Part shown: piece after piece, positions 423 to 57,121 of the stretch
How positions within the stretch are numbered: position 1 is the stretch's first letter
Layout of the letters: the number at the start of each line of letters is the position of its first letter
Virus record (IMG/VR): IMGVR_UViG_3300042894_001948
Direction: 5' to 3' (one strand)
Length of the DNA: 61,328 nt
From: a virus
Taxonomy: Duplodnaviria > Heunggongvirae > Uroviricota > Caudoviricetes
Notes under the pieces: generated by a model
Databases searched by the model: none
What the model was told of the DNA's origin: nothing
Seen by the model: the letters and a program-made list of their open reading frames with translations, nothing else
Position numbers and translations under genes: made by a program

Positions 423-3400
423 TGGCAAATAAAATACAAATAAGAAGGGATACTACTACAAACTGGACGGCAGTAAATCCTATTCTAAGCGAAGGCGAAC
501 TTGGCTTAGATACTACATTAAATAAAATTAAAATAGGTAACGGTACTGCACAATGGTCTGCATTATCATTTTATACTGGAAACCCAAGTTCATTAGTAAA
601 CGGATTACATACAGTTAGTTTAAATTCATCAGGCGTTGTGACATTTCCTGGTAATATTGCTACAGACGGAAATCATCTTACAGGTTGGAGTGGGAATTTA
701 GATCTTAATATTGACGGTAGCATAAAATTATCTGCAGATGCTAACTGTGCATTAACATTACAAGCTAATTCTCATCAATGGGCATTTGGAACAGATGGTA
801 AATTAACATTACCAAATAGCGGCAAAATATTTGATTACGCTGGTGGCGTCGGTGTTCTCGGCATACGTATTAGTAGAACTTTTCAAACTCCCAACAATGC
901 AGACTCTGCAAACTTTGGAACAAACACAATAAAACTAGTGCTATCAGATGTTGAGGCAGAAGAGATAAGAGAATACATATTAGCAGGTATTGGAGTAAGG
1001 GTTTGGTTCAACCAAGGAGACAGTTATCCAATTACCAGTTGTGTTCAAGTGTCTACTGGTGTATGGACCATAACAGCCTTGAACATGGGCAACAGATTTA
1101 CTACTTTTGCGGCTAGTAACACATTGATATTCATCTACACTGGCTCTACACCAAATAACTATACAGACTTTGAGGAATATGTGCCAGTAGGTGCCGGTGC
1201 TGCCGTTGTTGTTTTTAAAGGTGGAAACAGTTGGTACTTTGACAGAGATGGTGATCTCTCACTGCCAGGTACTATTCGCAACGCTATGACTGGTGATAAT
1301 CTTTTAAATCCTACCAAGCTGATCAACGGTGCTCACCAGGTAGTATTAAATGTAAATGGCACAACGCCATATGTGACGTTTCCGGCACTGGCCGGAGCAA
1401 ATGTATTAATTCAAGGCGGTGAGATTACGGTAGATGGTACTGGCGCAGCAAGCGCCGCTAGCTTGGCAAGCACCGAGGACCATGTGAGATTAGTTGCCAA
1501 TGCCGCTACTAGTGGTCTGCGAAGAGATTGGATATTTGGTACTAATGGTAACTTAACATTACCTAAAGGTGGCAGTGTAAGTGAAACATCTAATACTATA
1601 GCATTTGCTCCACCTACTGCAGCAGCTGGTCAAAGTTTAGTTATTCGTCCAACTGCTGGACAATTTACTATATCAACAGATCATCTAAGTGGATTTGTTC
1701 CAGGTGAATCTATAACAATAACGGTATCAACTCAATTTGGCAGCGATAGTGGTGAATTGTACTATACAATCACTGGGGCTACTACTGAACAATTAGGACG
1801 TGCAACAACTGGTACACTAACATTTAGTTCAGAGTCTACAAAAGCAGTAACTTGGACAATACCTGTACAAAGCAGTATGACTACATTTACATTTGATCTA
1901 ACTGGCGGAACTGGGTTTCCAGGACCTGGCGGAATTTATGTTGAACAGTTGCCTGAGATTACAGTTACATTAAATGGATCAGCAAGTTCTGAAAACAATC
2001 ACGTACATTTAGTAGCTGGTAATCCAACTACTGTTGACATGTATTTAGGTGATGACGACCAATATGTTAAGATTGAGAAAAATGCAGGTAATGTAGTTGT
2101 TGGTACTAATTTAAATACACATCAGTGGATATTTGGTACTAATAGTAACTTAACATTGCCTAATGCGTCTACAATATCTCCAGTATCACAAGTTGGTTAC
2201 AGTTATGGTCCATATGCCTCTGACATTTATAATAACACTACAGGCGGAGCGTTGTCCAGTGGAACTCAAACTGTTATTAATATAGGCGATACTGTACATA
2301 ATAATCTATTTGATCCTCCGGTTCCAAATGCTACTACTACAACAGGCACTATTGCTTCAAACGGTGATTTTGATCCAGGTACAAGCACTGGAACTTTTGA
2401 CCTGCACACTAATATAATAGTTAGTGGTCAGTCGTTAGGCGACTTATGGTATAGAGATGAAAATAATACAGCAGCTGGATTTACACTTGCCCAATCCGGT
2501 GTGCCATATACTGGACCTGTAGTAACAGCGGGTACACTTATATCTGGATATTCTGGGTGGATTACTCGTACTCCAAAAACAACAACATATATCAGATGGG
2601 CAGACGGGTCTAGATCACAAGTAACTGGAAGTAGGGTTAATCTATATCCAAATAGTTCAAATAGTGGGCTAATAACTACTGACAATGTAAGTGGAAAATC
2701 GTTCCCTGCAACGTTATATACTGCAAATTATATACCAAGTGGAACAGCAATTGGTGTCAACGGCAATGATTGGAAATTTGGCACAGATGGTAAATTAAAA
2801 TTACCAGGTACGGCATACAATAATACTTCGCCAAACTATATACATGCTAATCAAGGTATTGGATTGCACCCAACTCACAATACAGGCGGTACTGGTCCAG
2901 AATTATACATTTACTACAACGATGGTATAGTAGTTCAACCGTTTACTAATGATTACCTCACACCCAATAATGCTGCAGCACCGTTATATATTTCTGGTTC
3001 AAATTTGCCAAGTGGTAGTGCATCAACAGGTAAAACTGCTGGAAATGTTTATATAGAAGGTGGACGCAATGCCCAAGATAACACCTACGGCAAAGTAGTT
3101 GTTAAGAGCGGCACGAATCAATGGCAATTTAATTCAAGCGGTCAATTAACATTCCCAGATACTACTATTCAGCATACTGCCTACAGAGAACCAGATGTAA
3201 CAAATCAATTCTATGTTGATCCGTTTGCTGCAAATACTTATACCCCAACTGGAAGTATACTAAAACCATTTAGAACTATTGCTGCTGCACAAGCAGAAAT
3301 AGAAGCTCGTATCACAGCTAATACATTAGTTCCAGGAGAACTTAATCCGATCTTTATTGTGTTAACTGGATCTATTACTGAAAATGTAACGTTAACTAGA

Positions 3401-4237
3401 GGTCATGTGTTCTTAACTACACTAAACGGTGGTATACATACTCCAATTTATTTAACTGGACAGATTACGATTAATGGTAACAACTCTTCTACAGGTGCAA
3501 TCGACGCTAATCACTTTGCTATTACTGGTTTAACTATTATTGGACCTAATCAAGGTGCTTGTATATACTTTACCGGTACCAACGCACAACGTCTGCAAGT
3601 ACAAGATATCTGGTTAACTGCGCGTGGTAGCCAAACTGGTACAACACCGTTCGTTGACGCAGGCGGTTATGGTATTTTTTCTGATAACTCAGGCGTAAGA
3701 GCAAGTGATAACAAACGTTCACCTATTCACGGCAGTGATGTTAAAATTAGTCATACTGGTTCTGGTGACGTGTATTGCTTTAGATTTAGCAACGGGTCTA
3801 CCGGTGAATTTGATAATGTAGAAACCAGTGGAGCTACACAAGTAGGTGCTGCAGGATCTGGTTCATTATTAGCGTTTACTAACTCTACACTAGATGCTAA
3901 CGGTGAGGTTATATTAGAAGCATACGGCACTGGATCTATTTCAGTTAATAACTGTTTACTTTCTAATTCAAATACTGGTGTTTCATACGGTATTTGGTTA
4001 CACGACTTAGGTGGTAACGCAATTATTATTAATACTGTAATTTCAGTGGCATCATCTAATGCTGCAAGTCGCATGATTAAAGGGAATGCAACAGATCCAA
4101 CTGGTGTGTTCTATAATAATATTATGGTAGGTAAATCAACTACATATCCGTATCCAGATTTAAATAAGAAAGTAGATAATACTGTTGTGTTAACAGCTTT
4201 AACTGGTGCTGCTGGTTTAACTGCAGTTAATCCTTAA
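422..4237 (+). CDS. Tail fibre / receptor-binding protein
   Basis: IQIRRDTTTNWTAVNPILSEGELGLDT..KIKIGNG N-terminus (Mtd_N/hyaluronidase-type fibre anchor); G/T/S/N-rich; repeated WxFGTxGxLxLP linkers. Confidence 0.75.
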   Translation: MANKIQIRRDTTTNWTAVNPILSEGELGLDTTLNKIKIGNGTAQWSALSFYTGNPSSLVNGLHTVSLNSSGVVTFPGNIATDGNHLTGWSGNLDLNIDGSIKLSADANCALTLQANSHQWAFGTDGKLTLPNSGKIFDYAGGVGVLGIRISRTFQTPNNADSANFGTNTIKLVLSDVEAEEIREYILAGIGVRVWFNQGDSYPITSCVQVSTGVWTITALNMGNRFTTFAASNTLIFIYTGSTPNNYTDFEEYVPVGAGAAVVVFKGGNSWYFDRDGDLSLPGTIRNAMTGDNLLNPTKLINGAHQVVLNVNGTTPYVTFPALAGANVLIQGGEITVDGTGAASAASLASTEDHVRLVANAATSGLRRDWIFGTNGNLTLPKGGSVSETSNTIAFAPPTAAAGQSLVIRPTAGQFTISTDHLSGFVPGESITITVSTQFGSDSGELYYTITGATTEQLGRATTGTLTFSSESTKAVTWTIPVQSSMTTFTFDLTGGTGFPGPGGIYVEQLPEITVTLNGSASSENNHVHLVAGNPTTVDMYLGDDDQYVKIEKNAGNVVVGTNLNTHQWIFGTNSNLTLPNASTISPVSQVGYSYGPYASDIYNNTTGGALSSGTQTVINIGDTVHNNLFDPPVPNATTTTGTIASNGDFDPGTSTGTFDLHTNIIVSGQSLGDLWYRDENNTAAGFTLAQSGVPYTGPVVTAGTLISGYSGWITRTPKTTTYIRWADGSRSQVTGSRVNLYPNSSNSGLITTDNVSGKSFPATLYTANYIPSGTAIGVNGNDWKFGTDGKLKLPGTAYNNTSPNYIHANQGIGLHPTHNTGGTGPELYIYYNDGIVVQPFTNDYLTPNNAAAPLYISGSNLPSGSASTGKTAGNVYIEGGRNAQDNTYGKVVVKSGTNQWQFNSSGQLTFPDTTIQHTAYREPDVTNQFYVDPFAANTYTPTGSILKPFRTIAAAQAEIEARITANTLVPGELNPIFIVLTGSITENVTLTRGHVFLTTLNGGIHTPIYLTGQITINGNNSSTGAIDANHFAITGLTIIGPNQGACIYFTGTNAQRLQVQDIWLTARGSQTGTTPFVDAGGYGIFSDNSGVRASDNKRSPIHGSDVKISHTGSGDVYCFRFSNGSTGEFDNVETSGATQVGAAGSGSLLAFTNSTLDANGEVILEAYGTGSISVNNCLLSNSNTGVSYGIWLHDLGGNAIIINTVISVASSNAASRMIKGNATDPTGVFYNNIMVGKSTTYPYPDLNKKVDNTVVLTALTGAAGLTAVNP

Positions 4238-4258
4238 CAATTTAAATTAACAAATACT

Positions 4259-4282
4259 AAAGCCGCGTTAAGCGGCTTTTTT
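4259..4282 (+). terminator. Rho-independent terminator
   Basis: aaagccgc-gttaa-gcggcttttt after the fibre gene. Confidence 0.85.
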
Positions 4283-4287
4283 ATCTC

Positions 4288-4316
4288 TTGCATTTTTTGC
4301 AAAATTATACTATAAT
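4288..4316 (+). promoter_or_regulatory. sigma70-type early promoter
   Basis: TTGCAT-17 nt-TATAAT. Confidence 0.7.
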
Positions 4317-4340
4317 ATACAAAACATAAGGAGTTCATTT

Positions 4341-4427
4341 ATGTATACAGACATATTAATTATAATAGCATCAATATCAATACCGCTTATAATTACACTT
4401 TTAACTATACTATCAGGAAAAGAATAA
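4341..4427 (+). CDS. 28-aa membrane peptide (not in ORF track)
   Basis: AGGAG SD; MYTDILIIIASISIPLIITLLTILSGKE; stop overlaps the next ATG. Confidence 0.5.
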   Translation: MYTDILIIIASISIPLIITLLTILSGKE

Positions 4428-4975
4428 TGGGAATGTTTGATTCATTTTACGTAAGAGGCGTTGAAGTACAAACAAAAGCTCTTGATAACAATTTAAGCAG
4501 TTTTCAGTTAGGTGACACTGTTCCTAACTACGAAGGTAACTTTGACGGGCCAACAGGCACTTACTACTTAATTGAAGATTCATGGCCAACTAAGGAATGG
4601 TACGGACTTATTATAATTGACAACATATTTGTTGATGCAGTTAAAGCGCAAACAGAAGAAGAAGTAAGGCGAATAACAACAACAACATTTGCAACTCTTA
4701 AAGAAAGACCAGAGTTTGTTGCACAATTACTAACTGCAATAGTTAAAACAGAACTTAATCCAAAACTTAAACTTGCAGAACTTAAATTAAAACGGATTAG
4801 ATCTATCATTTATGATTACAAACAATCACTAGATCCAGACACTGATAACCGTATACGTATGTTTAGTTCATTGCATCCTAAAATTGATGAGTTTAGAAAA
4901 GGTGCAAAATTAGAAGTATTCATTAACGAAATACTTGAAGGTAAATTTTTAAATAATAATGAGGAGGATGAATGA
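4427..4975 (+). CDS. Hypothetical protein
   Basis: 182-aa ORF in a translationally coupled operon. Confidence 0.7.
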   Translation: MGMFDSFYVRGVEVQTKALDNNLSSFQLGDTVPNYEGNFDGPTGTYYLIEDSWPTKEWYGLIIIDNIFVDAVKAQTEEEVRRITTTTFATLKERPEFVAQLLTAIVKTELNPKLKLAELKLKRIRSIIYDYKQSLDPDTDNRIRMFSSLHPKIDEFRKGAKLEVFINEILEGKFLNNNEEDE

Positions 4976-6066
4976 GCATGTTTCCAACTATAACTAACTT
5001 AGATGATTTTAAAGCTAATGTAGGTGAAATACCTGGCATTGAGTTTAAAACTAATGAGGATGGTTATACAGTTGCGTCTTACTATATTTTAGATAGTAAA
5101 GTATTTGACAATCCATATGCGCGTGAGTGCCGTGGTATTACATTTGATAAAAACGGCAAACTAGTTTCACGCCCATTTCACAAGTTTTTTAACTTAGGTG
5201 AAAAAGAAGCTACTTTAGAATCTAACTTAGATTGGAATGACGTTGAATCTGTAATGGATAAACGCGATGGCTCAATGATATCTCCTGTGCTATTTCCAGA
5301 TGGTACTATTAAGTTCAAAACTAAACGTACTTACACATCTGATGAAGCAATACACGCTAATAACACATTTGGGCCAGGTACTCCGCAATATGAAATGTCA
5401 AAAGAGTTATGCCAATTAGATTGCACTCCAATCTTTGAATTAACTTCTCCTGTAAATCGTATTGTAGTAGCATACAAAGAATCCGAACTTACCCTACTAG
5501 CAGTACGACACAATGAGTCAGGTAACTATATTACACGCGGAGAAATTGAAGCGTTAGGTTCTGCATGGAATGTGCCTATAGTTGGTACTAACTTATGGTC
5601 TAACATTGAAGACTACAAAGATAAAATCAACACGCTAACTGCGTTTGAAGGTTTTGTAATTCAGTTCCATACTGGCGAAATGATTAAAATGAAAACTTTG
5701 TGGTATATGTCGTTGCATCGTAATGTTACATTTACTACAGAGAAAAACATAGTTGAAATGATCTTTGATGAAACTCTTGATGACTTCAAAGCATACTGTA
5801 CTACAGTTGAAGATTTTGATTTGTTTGATAAAGTGGTAGAAATTGAATCACGTGTAAACGACACATTATCTGAAATCATCGAAGACGTAAACACTACTGT
5901 TAATACTTGCGGTATTGAAACTGGACAATTTAAAGAGTTTGCGTTAACGTACAATAATCATCCACTATTTTGGCTACTGATGATGAAGTTTAAAGGTCAA
6001 GAACCTGCGTATGCCAAATACTTTTTAAACAACCATTTACACGAATATTCACGGGAGTGTATATAA
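4972..6066 (+). CDS. rnlA: RNA ligase 1 (T4 RnlA-like)
   Basis: ECRGITF, RPFHKFFNLGE, motif I KRDGSMI, EGFVI, KMKTLWY. Confidence 0.85.
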   Translation: MSMFPTITNLDDFKANVGEIPGIEFKTNEDGYTVASYYILDSKVFDNPYARECRGITFDKNGKLVSRPFHKFFNLGEKEATLESNLDWNDVESVMDKRDGSMISPVLFPDGTIKFKTKRTYTSDEAIHANNTFGPGTPQYEMSKELCQLDCTPIFELTSPVNRIVVAYKESELTLLAVRHNESGNYITRGEIEALGSAWNVPIVGTNLWSNIEDYKDKINTLTAFEGFVIQFHTGEMIKMKTLWYMSLHRNVTFTTEKNIVEMIFDETLDDFKAYCTTVEDFDLFDKVVEIESRVNDTLSEIIEDVNTTVNTCGIETGQFKEFALTYNNHPLFWLLMMKFKGQEPAYAKYFLNNHLHEYSRECI

Positions 6067-26159: not shown

Positions 26160-26237
26160 CTAAATAAAAAAAGCTAGTCGCGATGCACTATCATCCACTA
26201 GCACTAAACATTATATATGTTATCTAAGGAGACACTA
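26160..26237 (+). promoter_or_regulatory. Homing-endonuclease leader motif, copy A
   Basis: CTAAATA, then gctagt-cgc-gatg...catc-c-actagc hairpin, then AGGAG. Confidence 0.75.
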
Positions 26238-26840
26238 ATGCCCAGCACAATTATTTATATAGATATAAAACCAACTTATCTGTATATCAAACAACATTCA
26301 GTAACAGGTTTAAAATATTTCGGCAAAACTACTTCTCAAGATCCTAAAAGATATTTAGGATCAGGAAAACATTGGAAAAATCATATTACTGCACACGGAA
26401 AGGAATTTGTAGAAACTATTTGGGTTTCAGATCCATATACAAATAAAACTATGTTAACTGAATTTGCATTAACCTTTTCAAAAGAAAATAATATAGTAGA
26501 ATCTAAAGAGTGGGCTAACTTAATACCTGAAAACGGTATTAGTGGAGCAGTTCAAGGAAAACCGTGTACAGAAGAAACTAAATCTAAAATACGTGATTCA
26601 AAGAAAGGTAAACCTGGTCCAAATAAAGGAATCAAAGCAACTAAGCCTGCTTGGAATAAAGGCATTAAAACAGGTAAACCTGCACATAATACAGGTAAAC
26701 CGCACTCAATAGAAACTAGAGCTAAAATGTCTGCTTCTCAACAAAATAGACAACATATCTCTTGCCCGCATTGCAACACAACAGGAGTAAACAGTTCTAT
26801 GAAACGTTGGCACTTTGAAAATTGTAAGGTAATCAAATGA
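26238..26840 (+). mobile_element. Free-standing GIY-YIG (Seg-like) homing endonuclease with NUMOD3 repeats
   Basis: PTYLYIKQHSVTGLKYFGKT, YLGSG; C-terminal CPHC..RWHFENCK. Confidence 0.8.
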
Positions 26841-34230: not shown

Positions 34231-34319
34231 ATTAACACTTGACAAATATTATTTTTATGTTATAATATGCACAAGTTAACAATAATAAGCACATTAAATA
34301 TTTTAGTGTGTTTATTATT

Positions 34320-34666
34320 GTTGTAATTCCTTCAAAGTGACGGCATCAAACACTGGGGTTCGAAACCCCACATCTCCACCATAAAACACATTAGAGGTAT
34401 CGGAGTGGGGCAACAGCCGTAGACTTCCTGCCCCTCAAATGGGAAGTGATAGTGTGTTTTATAATGGGGATGAATTGGATTCGACTTGGTGAGATAATGG
34501 AGACGGCAACAGGTGAGGTGACTGTCCTAAACAGCGCAAAACTTATAGACGCAAAAGCATCTAAATTCGAGTATATGACAGTTGACTTCTCTTTGGAAGC
34601 AGCTGACATGGTAGCTTAAGAAACTACCGCTCTGGGGCATGTATGCCTTATTAACCAAAATACAAC
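34320..34666 (+). ncRNA. ssrA: Circularly permuted (two-piece) tmRNA
   Basis: Acceptor piece (T arm ggggttcgaaacccc, CATCTCC-ACCA ending 34381) precedes the coding piece (GGGGATG at 34466, G3:U70 pair, GGATTCGAC); tag ORF 34551-34619 AKASKFEYMTVDFSLEAADMVA; TTGACA/TATAAT promoter 34239-34266. Confidence 0.92.
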
Positions 34667-34667
34667 T

Positions 34668-34691
34668 AAGCACCCTTCGGGGTGCTTTTTT
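34668..34691. terminator. Bidirectional intrinsic terminator
   Basis: aagcaccc-ttcg-gggtgctttttt. Confidence 0.9.
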
Positions 34692-35883
34692 ATTGACCAT
34701 TTGATTTACTAAGGTTAATAAGTTTTTCATTCCAGTAATTGTAATAATTGATTAATTCTTGACTCATTATTTTTACAAATTTTTTATATACCGGGTATAA
34801 CTTTTTATCTTTAGGATGATTAAATGTCTTACTGAAATATTCAAATCTTCTAATTTTAATCGGGTGACCATAAACATCTTTTAACGCGGTTGGTCCATTA
34901 GACAAATTAGCAATAATCAATTTAAGTGCTTTTACTTGAGATTTTAAATGTGACACGTCTCTGCCATATTCATCAACCGAACCGCCCCATGCAAAATCTA
35001 AATGACGTATAACGCTAACTGCAGCGTCATGCGCATGTGCTGGTATTTCTTGTAACGACGAACTATATATTTTATAGTTTTCAGGCGACTTATCTAAATC
35101 TCTAATTGCATTATAAAACTTTTCTTGATTTGGCTCTACTTTACTTCTAAATTCAGTGCCTTGTTTAGTAACCAATTTGTGCTGTTTAGTATCTTTATCA
35201 AATACTCGTTTAGTTTTATATCTAGATTGAGGTGCGTGTTGTCTAATATGTACTAATTCGTGAACCATATTATCTATGTTTTTAGTGTCTAAGAAGAATT
35301 CAGCTAAACTAAAATCACCTAGTTTCAAATTTCTAAATGCAGGTTCGATTTGAAACATATCAGTTATCACAGGCACATATAGATTCTTTTGTTCAGCATT
35401 ACTCCATCCTCTGTTAACATCAGTCATTGCTTCTGTACTATATAACAAGTCTTTTAGCATATCTATATCTTGATGTTGGAAAGCATTCTTATCAGTTTCA
35501 TAGAATGTTACATAGTCATAACCAGCCGAGGCGAGGGCTCCTGGATTATTAGACTGAGGTAGAATTTGAATATGAGAAAAGTTTGTTCCACTTACATCCG
35601 CGCACACTTTAGCATATTTCTGCTGTATAACATAATGTGCTATCTTTACTATCTCTTCTAACATGTAAATAATATCACTAGGTTGCATTTTCTCATAAAA
35701 ACTACATATCCTGCCGTCGGACATATCTTTAAGGTATACTGCAATGGCATTAAATCCATTTATAGTTTCTAAGTTAAATGTAAGTCCTAACGGTTGTTCT
35801 AAAATATCATTTAACCCATTGTGCAATCCGTGTATCCAGTGAGCACCTGATATTGCTTCGCTTATAATTTCTTGTATTTTCAT
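34690..35883 (-). CDS. HExxH protein with MKIQEIISE leader
   Basis: MVHELVHIRQ; YSSSLQEIPAHAHD, similar to the motifs in 18265-19068. Confidence 0.65.
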   Translation of the reverse strand: MKIQEIISEAISGAHWIHGLHNGLNDILEQPLGLTFNLETINGFNAIAVYLKDMSDGRICSFYEKMQPSDIIYMLEEIVKIAHYVIQQKYAKVCADVSGTNFSHIQILPQSNNPGALASAGYDYVTFYETDKNAFQHQDIDMLKDLLYSTEAMTDVNRGWSNAEQKNLYVPVITDMFQIEPAFRNLKLGDFSLAEFFLDTKNIDNMVHELVHIRQHAPQSRYKTKRVFDKDTKQHKLVTKQGTEFRSKVEPNQEKFYNAIRDLDKSPENYKIYSSSLQEIPAHAHDAAVSVIRHLDFAWGGSVDEYGRDVSHLKSQVKALKLIIANLSNGPTALKDVYGHPIKIRRFEYFSKTFNHPKDKKLYPVYKKFVKIMSQELINYYNYWNEKLINLSKSNGQ

Positions 35884-37247: not shown

Positions 37248-37946
37248 ATGAATTATCAAAAAATATATGAAAACTTAACTGCAAAAGATATGATTGCAGA
37301 ATATACAGAAAAACATCATATCATTCCTAAATGCATGGGAGGTTCTGATGACAGCAGTAATTTAGTAAGATTAACTCCTGAAGCTCATTATGTAGCACAT
37401 CAACTGCTAGTTAAGATATATCCTAATAATCCTAAGCTAATTTATGCTGCACACATGATGAATAACGGAAGATCTACTAACAAATTATACGGATGGCTTA
37501 AGAGACGACATGCAATAGCAATGTCTAATCGCGTAGTTTCAGCTGAAACTAAAGCTAAACTGAGGTTAATTAGACAAAATATGCCGCAAGAAATTCGCGA
37601 TAAAATAAGTGCTACGTTAAAACAAAGAATCCGTACGGATGACGATAAAGCTAAAATGAGTGCCATGTTTAAAGGACGAACACATACTGCTGAAACTAAA
37701 GCCAAGATGCGTGCTGCTCAGCTGATTAATCCACATAGGTTAGGTAAAAATCATACTGCTGAAACTAAAGCTAAGATGAGCGCGTCTAGAAAAGGAAAAC
37801 CGGCACATAATAAAGGAACAACCTTTTCAGCTGAAGTACGTGCAAATATGAAGAAACAAAAATCAAAATGCATACATTGTAATTTAGAAGTAAGTGCGCA
37901 CATCATGACACGATGGCACGGAGATAACTGCAAACATAAACATTGA
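37248..37946 (+). mobile_element. HNH homing endonuclease (T4 MobE-like) with NUMOD3 repeats
   Basis: EKHHIIPKCMGGSDDSSNLVRLTPEAHYVAH; HTAETKAKM repeats. Confidence 0.85.
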
Positions 37947-48769: not shown

Positions 48770-49378
48770 TTAAGTTGTTTTTGGCGCGATTAGTGATTTA
48801 CATTTATCAAAATGCCATCTTTTAGCATTTGATGCTCCTTTTATATTAGATAAGCAATGCGGACACGTTAATATCTTAGGTGGTCTAGAAATACCAATAC
48901 TTCCTATAGATATTTTTTGTCGTGTTTCATCTGATACTATCCCAGTTTTACCCTTCTTCCACGATTCTCTACCCTTAGTTGTTTTAGATATTTTTTGTCG
49001 TGTTTCAGTAGAAATAGTTTTTCCTTGATGTTTAAGCCCAGATTTTTTTGAACTTTCTTGCGTACAATGAAATGTTCCGGCTCCATTTGATGAGTTTAAC
49101 CATTTTGGATTAGCAGCAGCATTAATTTTTAATAAGAATTTATTTTCGTATGCACATGCCTCTTCTTTTGTTGTAAATGTTTTGCGAACCTCAAATGAAA
49201 ATGCAGATTTTCCATGCATGCTAATTAAATTATGAATTTTGATTGACGATGTAAAATAGGTATCCCACAATTGAGCCGGCTGGCACTTTTTAGCATAACG
49301 AACTCCGTAATATTTTTCGCCGGTTAAAAGAAATGTAATACAATAAGTAAATGGAATATAAATAGTATTGCTGGTCAT
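48770..49378 (-). mobile_element. Free-standing GIY-YIG (Seg-like) homing endonuclease
   Basis: PFTYCIT...KYYGVRY, YFTSS; C-terminal CPHC..KRWHFDKCK; leader copy C. Confidence 0.78.
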
Positions 49379-49452
49379 GTTAGTTCCTGTAATTAATAAT
49401 AGAATGATTAGAGTTAGTGAGACTGCAATCTGCGACTAACACTTTTATTTAT
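49379..49452 (-). promoter_or_regulatory. Homing-endonuclease leader motif, copy C
   Basis: CATAAATA-aaagt-gttagt-cgc-agat-tgca-gtct-c-actaac...AGGA. Confidence 0.75.
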
Positions 49453-54228: not shown

Positions 54229-55484
54229 ATGTCAGCTACAATTGAAACGGTAAAAGCAGAAGCTAAAGAAGCTTTACTTTTGAACAAACCAGCTATGCTC
54301 GCAGGTGCAGCACTATATATAGTGTTTTACGGGTGGGTTCGTTGGTATGAGGGTGTTTATGGATGGTCTGCTGGTTTAGACTCATTTGCACCAGAGTTTG
54401 AAACATATTGGATGAACTTCCTATATATTGAAATGGTACTAGAAGTTATTACTGCTTCAGTATTGTGGGGTTATATTTGGAAAACACGTGATCGCAAAGT
54501 AATGTCAATTACACCACGCGAGGAATTACGTCGCCACTTTACACACTGGATTTGGTTAGTAATGTATGGTATCGCAATTTATTATGGTGCTTCATACTTT
54601 ACGGAACAAGATGGTACATGGCATCAAACGATCGTTCGTGACACTGACTTTACACCAAGTCATGTTATTGAGTTTTATCTAAGTTATCCTATTTACATCA
54701 TCACAGGCGTTTCTGCATTCTTATATGCTAAAACACGCTTGCCTACCTACCAAAAAGGTTTGCCATTACAATACTTAGTATCAGTAATTGGACCTTTCAT
54801 GATTCTTCCAAACGTCGGCTTAAACGAATGGGGTCATACTTTCAACACAGGAAGCTCATTATAGCAATGTAATGATGAAAACTCTGTGAAAACGGTGAAC
54901 ATCCAGAACGGACAATACCGTGCCAAGCTTAGAAATAAGAAGGTGTAACGACTATCCTGAAAGGGAGTACACTCAAGTGAGTGGAAGCGCAGAGCAACCT
55001 ACATGGTTGATGAGATAGTCTGCTCTAACTGGGAACAGTTAGCAGTTCATAAGAGAACGGTATAAGCGTAACGAACTTATATGAACATAGGCTGGTTTAT
55101 GGAGGAGTTATTTGTCGCTTAAATAAGTGGGCGCGTTTACTAGTAATAGTAAAATGAAAACTTTGTGAAAACGGTGAACATCCAGAACGGACAATACCGT
55201 GCTAAGTCTCAAAAAAGAGAAAAGTGTAACGACTATCCCGAAAGGGAGTACACTCAAGTGAGTGGAAGCGCAAAGCAACTGTAGTAGTTGAAGAGATAGT
55301 CTAATCTATATAGGAATATATAGCAGTTCATAAGAGAACGGTATAAGAGTAACGAACTTATATGAATATAATGCCTTTACATTATGGGTTTGTATTTTTT
55401 GGATGGGCTGCACTTGGTGTATTAGGTGTAGTAAATATTGAAGTACAAGCAATATCTAAATTGTTGAAAAGCGATTTAGCTTAA
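54229..55484 (+). CDS. pmoC: Particulate methane monooxygenase subunit C, three exons: 54229-54842, 55092-55119, 55374-55484 (250 aa)
   Basis: Exons join in frame (614+28+111=753 nt) to give ...[32 protein letters not shown]...KSDLA; EQDGTWHQ and TPSH copper-site motifs present; Methylobacter-like sequence. Confidence 0.96.
54843..55091 (+). mobile_element. Group I intron 1 in pmoC (249 nt, no ORF)
   Basis: P1 CUUU|C with GGAAG including U54842:G54851; P3 ctctg/cagag; P7 gactat/atagtc; terminal G. Confidence 0.93.
55120..55373 (+). mobile_element. Group I intron 2 in pmoC (254 nt, no ORF)
   Basis: P1 CGCU|UA with UGGGCG including U55119:G55130; P3 ctttg/caaag (covaries with intron 1); P7 gactat/atagtc; terminal G. 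Confidence 0.93.
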
Positions 55485-55490
55485 TTGATT

Positions 55491-55522
55491 AGAAAGGGGA
55501 CCTAGGTCCCCTTTCTGCTTTT
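55491..55522. terminator. Bidirectional terminator between pmoC and the endonuclease
   Basis: agaaaggggacc-ta-ggtcccctttct; contains the endonuclease stop codon. Confidence 0.85.
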
Positions 55523-56257
55523 ACAATTATCAAAATGATATCTTGTCATATTGCCCCCGCTACCTTCTGTATTACAATGCGGACATGTTTTTATTTTCAT
55601 ATTCCGAGATTTTGTTATTCTTCCATTAGAATAAAACCGTGTAGTGTTATCTGGTAACATAAAATACTCTTTAATACCGTCATTGAACCATTGTTTTCCA
55701 ATTGAACGTCCTAACGCACGTTGGCGCATTCTTTCTAATTGTTCATCAGAATAAACACCAGTTTTACCTTTATTCCATACTTCCTGTACACCGGTTTTAC
55801 CTTTATTCCACGGTATTGATCCTTGTTTTGCCTGACTAATTTTACAACATGTTTCTTTAGATCTAGGCGGTTTTGATATTCCCTTAGTTTTTCCTGTTAA
55901 TGCTTTACTAATGTTATGTTTGGTAGTTGCTGTATGTTTATAACCAACAGTGCCTTCTCCACCAAGAGTCATATTATACCCATTACTATTGTTAACGTGA
56001 ATATAACTATTATATTCTATTATAAAATAGTTTTCCATTATAGATAGAGTATGTACTGCATCATATGATTGATACAGGATATTCCATTCAAAGTTATCCC
56101 ATCCGTATTTACGTATAGCATTATAAAAAACTTGATTTGAAGAAGTAGTACTATGATAACGGTGTTCATATTTTCGTTTTGGCCAGTTTGAATCAAATCC
56201 AATATACATTTTTCCATTTAGTATATTTGTAGCTGAGTAGATTGTATAAATATTCAT
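55502..56257 (-). mobile_element. Free-standing GIY-YIG homing endonuclease with NUMOD3 repeats
   Basis: IYTIYSATNILNGKMYIGF, YNMTLGGEG; C-terminal CPHC..TRYHFDNCK; leader copy D. Confidence 0.85.
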
Positions 56258-56322
56258 GTTGATACTCCTCTAAAGTATTAAAGTAGTTGGGACGGCAATC
56301 CGCGAACTACACCTTTATTTAT
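56258..56322 (-). promoter_or_regulatory. Homing-endonuclease leader motif, copy D
   Basis: AATAAATA-aaggt-gtagtt-cgc-ggat-tgcc-gtcc-c-aactac...AGGAG. Confidence 0.75.
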
Positions 56323-56452
56323 TATACATACTACTTTGAGGGGCGAAAAGTATGGTTAACATAGCATACGAATTTGGAGCAGTAATGGTTGCGATAATTT
56401 TTACAATTATAACATTAATGGTTTTATTAGATTGTGATGACTAAATAATAGT

Positions 56453-57121
56453 ATGAAAATATCAGAATTACTCAACGAAGCTCCCTTACCTCCGGATTGG
56501 GATAGCAATGTATTTACTCCGGATAACACTTACAAAAAAAGAATGGATTATACTGCAGCACGAGCTCAAAAGTTAGGCAGAGGCTCATCAAGGACTGCAT
56601 TTGAAATAGAATACCAAGGTAGGACTACTGTTCTTAAAGTTGCCCATAATATAAAAGGCATGGCACAAAACAAAGCAGAAGCAAATATATTAGATGATGG
56701 TTATGTGCAACAATTAGGTATTACTATTCCAATTATTGATTATGACGAAGCGCATGATGCTCCTGTTTGGATTCATATGGAAAAAGCACAAAAAGCTACT
56801 GAAAAACAATTGTGTAACCTAATGAAGTGTGGTACATTACAGTTATTAGTTGCAATGGCAGCAGCTAGTACCGATGCAAAAGGTCTGATATTAAGTCACA
56901 ATGAAGTTATCCGTGAATTACAATCAGAACGCTTTAATTACACAGACGAAGATGTTGAGTTATGCGAAGACTATGCACAGGCATTAACTGAGCTTGCAGT
57001 TAATTTTAATATTGGGTTATTTGACTTCGTAAGAACAGCTAATTGGGGTATATTTAACGGTAAACCAGTTGTAATTGATGTTGGTTATACAGATGCAGTG
57101 CATAGAGCACATTATATGTAA
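56453..57121 (+). CDS. Protein kinase-like protein with MKISELLNE leader
   Basis: LGRGSSRTAF, VLKVA, QNKAEA, NWG, VVIDVG; CTAAATA upstream. Confidence 0.7.
   Translation: MKISELLNEAPLPPDWDSNVFTPDNTYKKRMDYTAARAQKLGRGSSRTAFEIEYQGRTTVLKVAHNIKGMAQNKAEANILDDGYVQQLGITIPIIDYDEAHDAPVWIHMEKAQKATEKQLCNLMKCGTLQLLVAMAAASTDAKGLILSHNEVIRELQSERFNYTDEDVELCEDYAQALTELAVNFNIGLFDFVRTANWGIFNGKPVVIDVGYTDAVHRAHYM

Follow-up and report, generated by a model that had tools for sequence, protein, structure and literature searches.

A lake phage of the class Caudoviricetes carries a pmoC gene that is interrupted by two group I introns, and a free-standing homing endonuclease gene (HEG) converges on that gene from the opposite strand. 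The locus raises the question of whether the enzyme and the introns form a single mobile system or are simply neighbors. We refer to the whole stretch of DNA that was analyzed, 61,328 nt in length, as the window. Two precedents are relevant. In the collaborative homing of cyanophage S-PM2, the free-standing F-CphI gene lies next to a group I intron of psbA that contains no ORF (Zeng, Bonocora and Shub 2009, as summarized in PMC3984707), and in the trans homing of T4, MobE mobilizes an nrdB intron with a defunct I-TevIII (PMC2790892). Comparison of the window with related phage sequences leads us to conclude that the HEG at 55502-56257 and the pmoC introns are probably engaged in collaborative or trans homing. 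The features of the locus are as follows.

54229-54842, plus strand: pmoC exon 1, ending ...EWGHTF with the first two bases of the Phe codon (Pfam AmoC, E 1e-100)
54843-55091, plus strand: group I intron 1 (site 17), 249 nt, ORF-less (Rfam RF00028, 67.3 bits)
55092-55119, plus strand: pmoC exon 2, 28 nt, WFMEELFVA, read from the sequence
55120-55373, plus strand: group I intron 2 (site 45), 254 nt, ORF-less (Rfam RF00028, 80.4 bits)
55374-55484, plus strand: pmoC exon 3, from PLHYGF... to the TAA stop at 55482-55484
55491-55516, both strands: perfect palindrome of 26 nt with a 12-bp stem, between pmoC and the HEG, from folding
55502-56257, minus strand: HEG of "type A," free-standing GIY-YIG, 251 aa (ORF list, PHROG, I-TevI profile, Foldseek, dN/dS)
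55523-55585, minus strand: C-terminal CCHC zinc-knuckle-like motif (C225, C228, H241, C245)
55748-55861, minus strand: NUMOD3-type DNA-binding repeats, aa 133-170, two PWNKGK/WNKGK units (Pfam PF07460, E 1.6e-6)
55958-56257, minus strand: GIY-YIG catalytic domain, about aa 1-100, IYTIY ... MYIG followed by Arg28, Glu75, and Asn95 (I-TevI alignment)
56258-56322, minus strand: conserved HEG leader, 65 nt, with an AGGAG Shine-Dalgarno sequence at 56265-56269, 7 nt 5' of the ATG

Once spliced, pmoC is a coding sequence of 753 nt, in frame. No endonuclease-sized ORF appears in the ORF list for either intron, and the HEG lies outside pmoC, so it is not an intron-encoded endonuclease. A preliminary description of the locus had reported a free-standing GIY-YIG gene convergent on pmoC and ORF-less introns about 130 to 650 bp away, and both points hold: the ORF is intact (ATG start, 0 internal stops, TAG at 55502-55504), its predicted fold resembles that of I-TevI, both introns belong to the Rfam group I family, and the HEG stop at 55502 lies 129 nt from the end of intron 2 and 659 nt from the start of intron 1. 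The end coordinate given there, 56322, likewise proves to be a natural boundary, as homology of the HEG cassette with loci L020, L041, and L070 stops exactly at this position. The two-intron-plus-HEG cassette of the window recurs in locus L161 at 76 to 93% identity, and includes the same 28-nt exon 2.

The palindrome between the two genes begins 7 nt past the pmoC stop, and one of its arms encodes the last residues of the HEG product, RKGT. Its folding energy is -21.4 or -20.8 kcal/mol, depending on the strand (z -4.3 and -4.8), and its core, GGGGACCTAGGTCCCC, is found again in L161 and L163. The earlier suggestion that the HEG stop codon sits in a shared terminator is thus borne out as to position, with the TAG in the loop of the palindrome, 17 nt past the pmoC stop; as to function, a simple consensus terminator scan did not call this hairpin, and its shape and placement suggest that it may act as a terminator.

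The product of the HEG is confirmed as a GIY-YIG homing endonuclease with the architecture of I-TevI and the Seg enzymes, in which a catalytic domain is followed by NUMOD3 repeats and a CCHC tail. It matches PHROG homing-endonuclease families 314, 7168, 19446, and 5123 with E values from 9e-28 to 4e-12, and its GIY and YIG motifs stand about 10 residues apart at the N terminus. A single-sequence search gave a weak match to the I-TevI catalytic domain (E 0.085), and a profile built on 14 HEG orthologues gave E 7e-5. When an AlphaFold model of the protein was searched with Foldseek, I-TevI structures 1mk0/1ln0 ranked first (probability 1.00, TM 0.66 to 0.68), followed by other GIY-YIG nucleases. 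I-TevI residues Y6, Y17, R27, E75, and N90 all have equivalents in the HEG product (R27, E75, and N90 align to R28, E75, and N95), and the NUMOD3 repeats are conserved in the type-A protein alignment.

To place the locus among its relatives, IMG/VR was searched with PmoC exon 1, which returned 80 phage loci; the whole survey comprised about 85 pmoC-phage loci. Across different phages, five types of GIY-YIG HEG, which we call A to E, occupy the same pad, convergent and directly after pmoC.

Type A: window, L020, L083, L085, L041/L070, L040, L161/162, L163
Type B: L001/2, L059
Type C: L003/4, L010/14
Type D: L039, L060, L044/47
Type E: L055/80, L072

No further relatives of types B, C, and D were found in IMG/VR beyond these loci, and an alignment of 12 HEGs of the five types was too diverse to seed a locus search. 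All five types end in a CCHC knuckle, and the motif is invariant in these 12 HEGs. We considered whether this tail might be a pmoC-specific DNA-binding module and ruled this out, as it is also present in many HEGs far from pmoC and in three other ORFs of the window, one of them with an HNH-like head. It therefore appears to be a general module and not an address for pmoC.

Short tblastn matches after pmoC in L001-4 and L010/14 were also considered as decayed HEG remnants, a reading that ORF listing ruled out, because the ORFs proved to be complete HEGs belonging to other types, with nothing in common beyond the first four codons and the C-terminal tail. These first four codons (MNIY) are common to types A, B, and C (window 56245-56257, L001 at about 5902-5913, L003 at about 5661-5673). 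In three phages that are about 96% identical, the last 27 to 46 codons of these three types also show high DNA identity and the bodies are unrelated, so that the nuclease body appears, from this pattern of identity, to have been swapped in place between conserved handles.

Every type-A relative whose context was read (at least 54% identity to the window HEG) is convergent at the 3' end of a phage pmoC, a count that covers relatives other than P0001-P0004 and P0008, the closest database homologues of the window HEG (up to 89% identity). On the side away from pmoC, the gene adjoining the HEG differs among five type-A lineages, which leaves pmoC as the sole constant neighbor. Between the window and L161, the HEG leaders are 78.5% identical, and the sequence in common on the far side is limited to the first 70 nt beyond the HEG. 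In the window, the far side carries a 222-aa ORF at 56453-57121 (plus strand) that belongs to PHROG 4301, for which no function is assigned, and whose start resembles a kinase glycine loop. This ORF is an indel, being absent in L001 and L003, where the sequence equivalent to 56245-56447 joins the DNA ligase gene directly.

The association with pmoC does not depend on an intron. Type-A orthologues at 69 to 71% identity adjoin an uninterrupted pmoC with a native-looking target stretch in L020, L083, L041, and L070, which indicates that an intron is not required for residence of the HEG. A search near sites 17 and 45 for substitutions that might make these HEG-bearing, intron-less alleles (L020/L083 and L041/L070) immune found none that is unique to them.

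Introns in phage pmoC genes occur at six sites, approximately 12, 17, 22, 45, 61, and 81 nt from the Glu codon of EWGH, and together span 70 nt. Locus L161 has the arrangement of the window, L039 and L163 have two introns each, and L040 has four. In L040 (1530-2620), the four group I introns are packed into about 70 nt of coding pmoC sequence, and the first of them would need to end in A or C, not the usual G, for EWG/HTF to be restored. Such clustering could merely mirror the most conserved stretch of PmoC.

The preliminary description had proposed co-occurrence of the endonuclease with intron-bearing pmoC as a check, and the outcome is positive, though with exceptions. Among the 73 assessable contigs, 9 have both HEG and intron, 12 have the HEG alone, 1 has an intron alone, and 51 have neither. 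The association is significant after dereplication and with the loci found via the HEG query left out (Fisher p 0.001 to 0.03), but the 12 HEG-bearing contigs without introns count against a strict pairing, and a phylogeny-aware paired (sign) test gave p >= 0.25 with only 3 to 4 informative independent pairs, and so was underpowered. In the clade of the window (at least 94% PmoC identity), introns are present in 4/4 HEG-bearing lineages and 0/8 HEG-less ones. In a deep clade (57 to 62% identity), 7 contigs have a HEG and 0 have an intron.

In the near-isogenic phages L010/L014 and L011/12/13, the 4.6 kb that lead up to the intron site are 99.1% identical, and the 2.8 kb that follow the HEG are 99.2% identical. 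In the interval, L010 carries an intron of 249 nt, a pmoC tail with 86 to 88% identity to that of L011, a HEG of type C, and a 92-nt leader, and the left edge of this foreign tract lies 2 to 17 nt from site 17. Because the two genomes differ by a single block, intron, tail, and HEG entered as one tract, and L010 and L011 thus document the joint inheritance of HEG and intron by gene conversion in relatives of the window.

Two further cases place recombination in the same part of the gene. L020 and L041, which have type-A HEGs and no intron, carry pmoC 5' parts from different backbones (43 to 46% identity) and yet match completely (100%) between -245 and +40; the junction falls at +21 to +41. 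In L107 (reverse complement, 3185-5468), pmoC has a substitute tail, 60% identical, from site 45 onward; next come a chimeric HEG, the C-terminal half of which is type-A-like (49% identity), and three short ORFs. Beyond them, 1.5 kb downstream of its original place, lies the native pmoC tail, which has a hairpin of its own, begins exactly at site 45, and shares 97% identity with L031. The three independent recombination or insertion junctions, in L010, L020/L041, and L107, all fall within the EWGHTFWFMEELFVAPLH coding stretch that the preliminary description had named as a possible cleavage site, and they occupy 45 nt of a 750-nt gene.

These observations suggest how the locus may work. During co-infection, the HEG product would break HEG-less pmoC alleles in the final ~150 nt of the gene; the likeliest place is near site 45, where intron 2 is inserted between ...FVA and PLH.... 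The HEG-bearing genome would serve as the template for repair, which would then copy the HEG and, by co-conversion, the neighboring ORF-less introns. In the phage's own genome, the target stretch is split by the introns, which would make it immune. Cutting, the position of the cut, and immunity through the intron are what we infer from these comparisons, with different degrees of assurance. That the HEG is an active, pmoC-directed homing endonuclease that mobilizes the introns seems to us likely on balance. That its target lies at the hot spot near site 45 is somewhat less sure, with the chances for and against it nearly even.

The alternative that survives best is one in which the introns offer no protection. 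As in trans homing by MobE, the target would be the pmoC tail past the introns, the hairpin, or the spacer in which the HEG is inserted, and the introns, only a few hundred nucleotides away, would be dragged along by co-conversion, neither splitting the target nor giving immunity. We think this rather unlikely, although several observations fit it well. There is a precedent in which the nick falls away from the intron site (PMC2790892), type-A HEGs reside beside uninterrupted pmoC, and the segment replaced in L011 (4612-4810) takes in 60 nt of spacer, so that the break could have been there. The divergence of the introns also bears on the matter. Compared with L161, intron 2 of the window is 81% identical, exon 3 is 83% identical, the HEG is 76% identical, and exon 1 is 81% identical, whereas intron 1 is 93% identical. 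Intron 1 is 93 to 99% identical to the introns of L161, L010, and L003, whose exon 1 is only 81 to 93% identical, and for L010 and L003, where the exons have diverged further, the intron identity is still 95 to 99%. Intron 1 thus moves on its own schedule, 93 to 99% identical between lineages in which the HEG is 76% identical, as the alternative without protection would have it.

Against that alternative, the spacer and the far flank are not conserved among type-A lineages, and the three junctions lie in the hot spot rather than in the spacer. In addition, the intron at site 45 is constant with type A, being present in all four intron-bearing type-A lineages (the window, L161, L163, and L040), whose other introns differ, and the L107 cassette was inserted exactly at site 45. 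Intron 2, exon 3, and the HEG have diverged to roughly the same extent as exon 1, so that intron 2 has the look of an old, stable companion of type-A HEGs. Intron 1, which is far less diverged than the exons, looks like a recent, highly mobile, and separate arrival that elsewhere travels with type-C HEGs.

It is also possible to regard the HEG and the introns as chance neighbors in a HEG-rich phage whose pmoC happens to have introns, with co-occurrence reflecting shared ancestry and linkage; linked insertions might also travel together by ordinary phage recombination. The composition of the window lends this some color. Besides the gene beside pmoC, it contains three HEG-like ORFs.

26208-26840, plus strand: NUMOD3 twice, CCHC tail
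37248-37946, plus strand: weak HNH match and NUMOD3, CCHC tail
48770-49435, minus strand: SegE-type GIY-YIG domain and NUMOD3, CCHC tail

The 61-kb window, to which the HEG and intron counts for the source phage refer, thus has four HEG-like ORFs with the same CCHC tail and only the two pmoC introns; no Rfam-detectable intron was found beside the other three HEGs. With four HEGs in 61 kb, the adjacency of one of them to pmoC is weak evidence when taken alone, and we estimate the chance of an intron-bearing gene lying this close to one of four HEGs at ~10 to 15%. The Rfam search also identified a tmRNA at 34267-34692 (plus strand; permuted tmRNA 101.9 bits, beta_tmRNA 86.6 bits).

Chance proximity would account for the nonsignificant phylogeny-aware test and for the existence of both HEG-only and intron-only loci, the latter being L016, in which a site-45 intron is present and the HEG is absent. 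It does not readily explain why at least six distinct combinations of HEG type and intron site occur, why no discordant locus occurs in the clade of the window, why L010 and L011 differ by a single block, or why the association remains significant after dereplication. Locus L042 (3143-4382) points the same way: unlike every other locus, it has its sole intron near the 5' end of pmoC (aa 45/46), and here a type-D-like HEG ORF is found at the 5' flank of pmoC, 268 nt from the intron. We regard chance as an improbable explanation.

More improbable still is that the HEG has decayed or been domesticated, having lost cleavage or become a DNA-binding regulator. HEGs often degenerate after fixation (PMC3984707), and two features of the protein could be read in this way. 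The Pfam GIY-YIG model PF01541 does not match it at E <= 0.01 and is present in many of its relatives at 37 to 54% identity, and the AlphaFold model (mean pLDDT 65) has a low-confidence linker after an N-terminal domain at about 70 to 85 (69 to 85 over aa 1 to 70). Set against these are catalytic residues that are intact and invariant in 14 type-A orthologues, in which Y18 and G20 are also invariant, as they are in the 12 HEGs of the five types adjoining pmoC. The ORF is full length in every type-A lineage and, with dN/dS values of 0.17 to 0.39 against orthologues, is by this measure maintained by purifying selection. Fold, catalytic residues, and dN/dS together make the predicted protein look like an active enzyme.

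Finally, the idea that the HEG mainly cuts host pmoC copies in a takeover of the host, and not rival phage alleles, is hardly credible. The preliminary description had raised an attack on host pmoC, and in favor of this Methylococcales pmoC matches the spliced stretch of the window as well (77-79/90 nt) as intron-less phage alleles do (77-80/90). Nothing points to it specifically, however: such a HEG was present at 0/120 bacterial pmoC loci, the comparative signatures (block transfer and junctions) are all phage-phage, and destroying host pmoC would conflict with carrying pmoC as an auxiliary gene. Among the bacterial matches, otherwise from methanotrophs, the pmoC contigs L245 and L300 are filed under Dehalococcoidia and Elusimicrobia MAGs and are probably mis-binned.

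A broader interpretation, which we offer tentatively and consider possible more than likely, is that the copper-site coding stretch of phage pmoC is a battleground on which at least five GIY-YIG types and introns at six sites turn over. Were this so, each intron would be the partner or the immunity scar of one endonuclease type, the pairs being type A with site 45, type C with site 17, type B with site 61, and type D with sites 22/81. An allele with two to four introns inside 70 nt would, on this view, have stacked one immunity on another, and the same enzymes could also hit host pmoC, which is equally close in sequence.

The paper on pmoC phages (Chen et al. 2020 preprint) describes "fragmented" pmoC genes and nearly identical phages whose pmoC regions differ, with no mention of introns or homing; no paper in the literature searched links pmoC, phage, and intron. 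Cassettes such as the one in the window account for phage pmoC having been called fragmented and for the differences between near-identical phages there, and they affect the annotation and counting of viral contributions to methane oxidation. The natural variation at pmoC is unusually rich: one near-isogenic pair differs by the presence of the cassette, five types of endonuclease share one pad, and introns use six sites, as many as four of them inside 70 nt of one gene. Substrates are thus already at hand for experiments on whether introns that lack an ORF survive by shielding a gene from neighboring endonucleases.

Among known systems, I-TevI of the T4 td intron and the Seg enzymes share with the window HEG the catalytic fold and residues and a modular build of nuclease domain, linker, and DNA-binding modules that include NUMOD3. 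In the catalytic domain, only ~30% of the sequence is identical to that of I-TevI, and I-TevI is intron-encoded with a helix-turn-helix end, whereas the window HEG is free-standing with a CCHC end that is common to HNH-type ORFs. The Seg enzymes of T4 are likewise free-standing, and in phages that lack the HEG they cut close to the point at which it inserts. Mobile endonuclease ORFs of fungal mitochondria, for example in Allomyces atp6, bring a substitute gene end. The L107 cassette resembles these, with its diverged replacement pmoC tail and the native tail left as a fragment; the likeness holds for L107 and not for the window, the allele of which keeps a native-type tail and the introns.

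Like the T4 nrdB system, the window pairs a non-autonomous intron with a neighboring free-standing endonuclease, and mobilization by co-conversion, which is limited to a recombination distance of up to ~2 kb, would be feasible over the 129 to 659 nt seen here. MobE, however, is a nickase of the HNH family that acts elsewhere than at the intron insertion site, and in the pmoC phages the junctions and L107 would point to the hot spot.

The closest parallel is with F-CphI and psbA. In both, the HEG is free-standing with ORF-less introns within recombination distance, the intron occupies a highly conserved coding stretch, and HEG and intron are expected to move together, as their joint inheritance in relatives of the window also suggests. 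The pmoC system differs in its gene, in its GIY-YIG enzyme, in its two introns 28 nt apart, in the six intron sites and five HEG types found at one pad across pmoC phages, and in having HEG orthologues beside uninterrupted pmoC as well. Only two systems of collaborative or trans homing have been worked out experimentally, psbA/F-CphI and nrdB/MobE (PMC3984707, PMC2790892), and the pmoC locus would add a third, in a different auxiliary metabolic gene.
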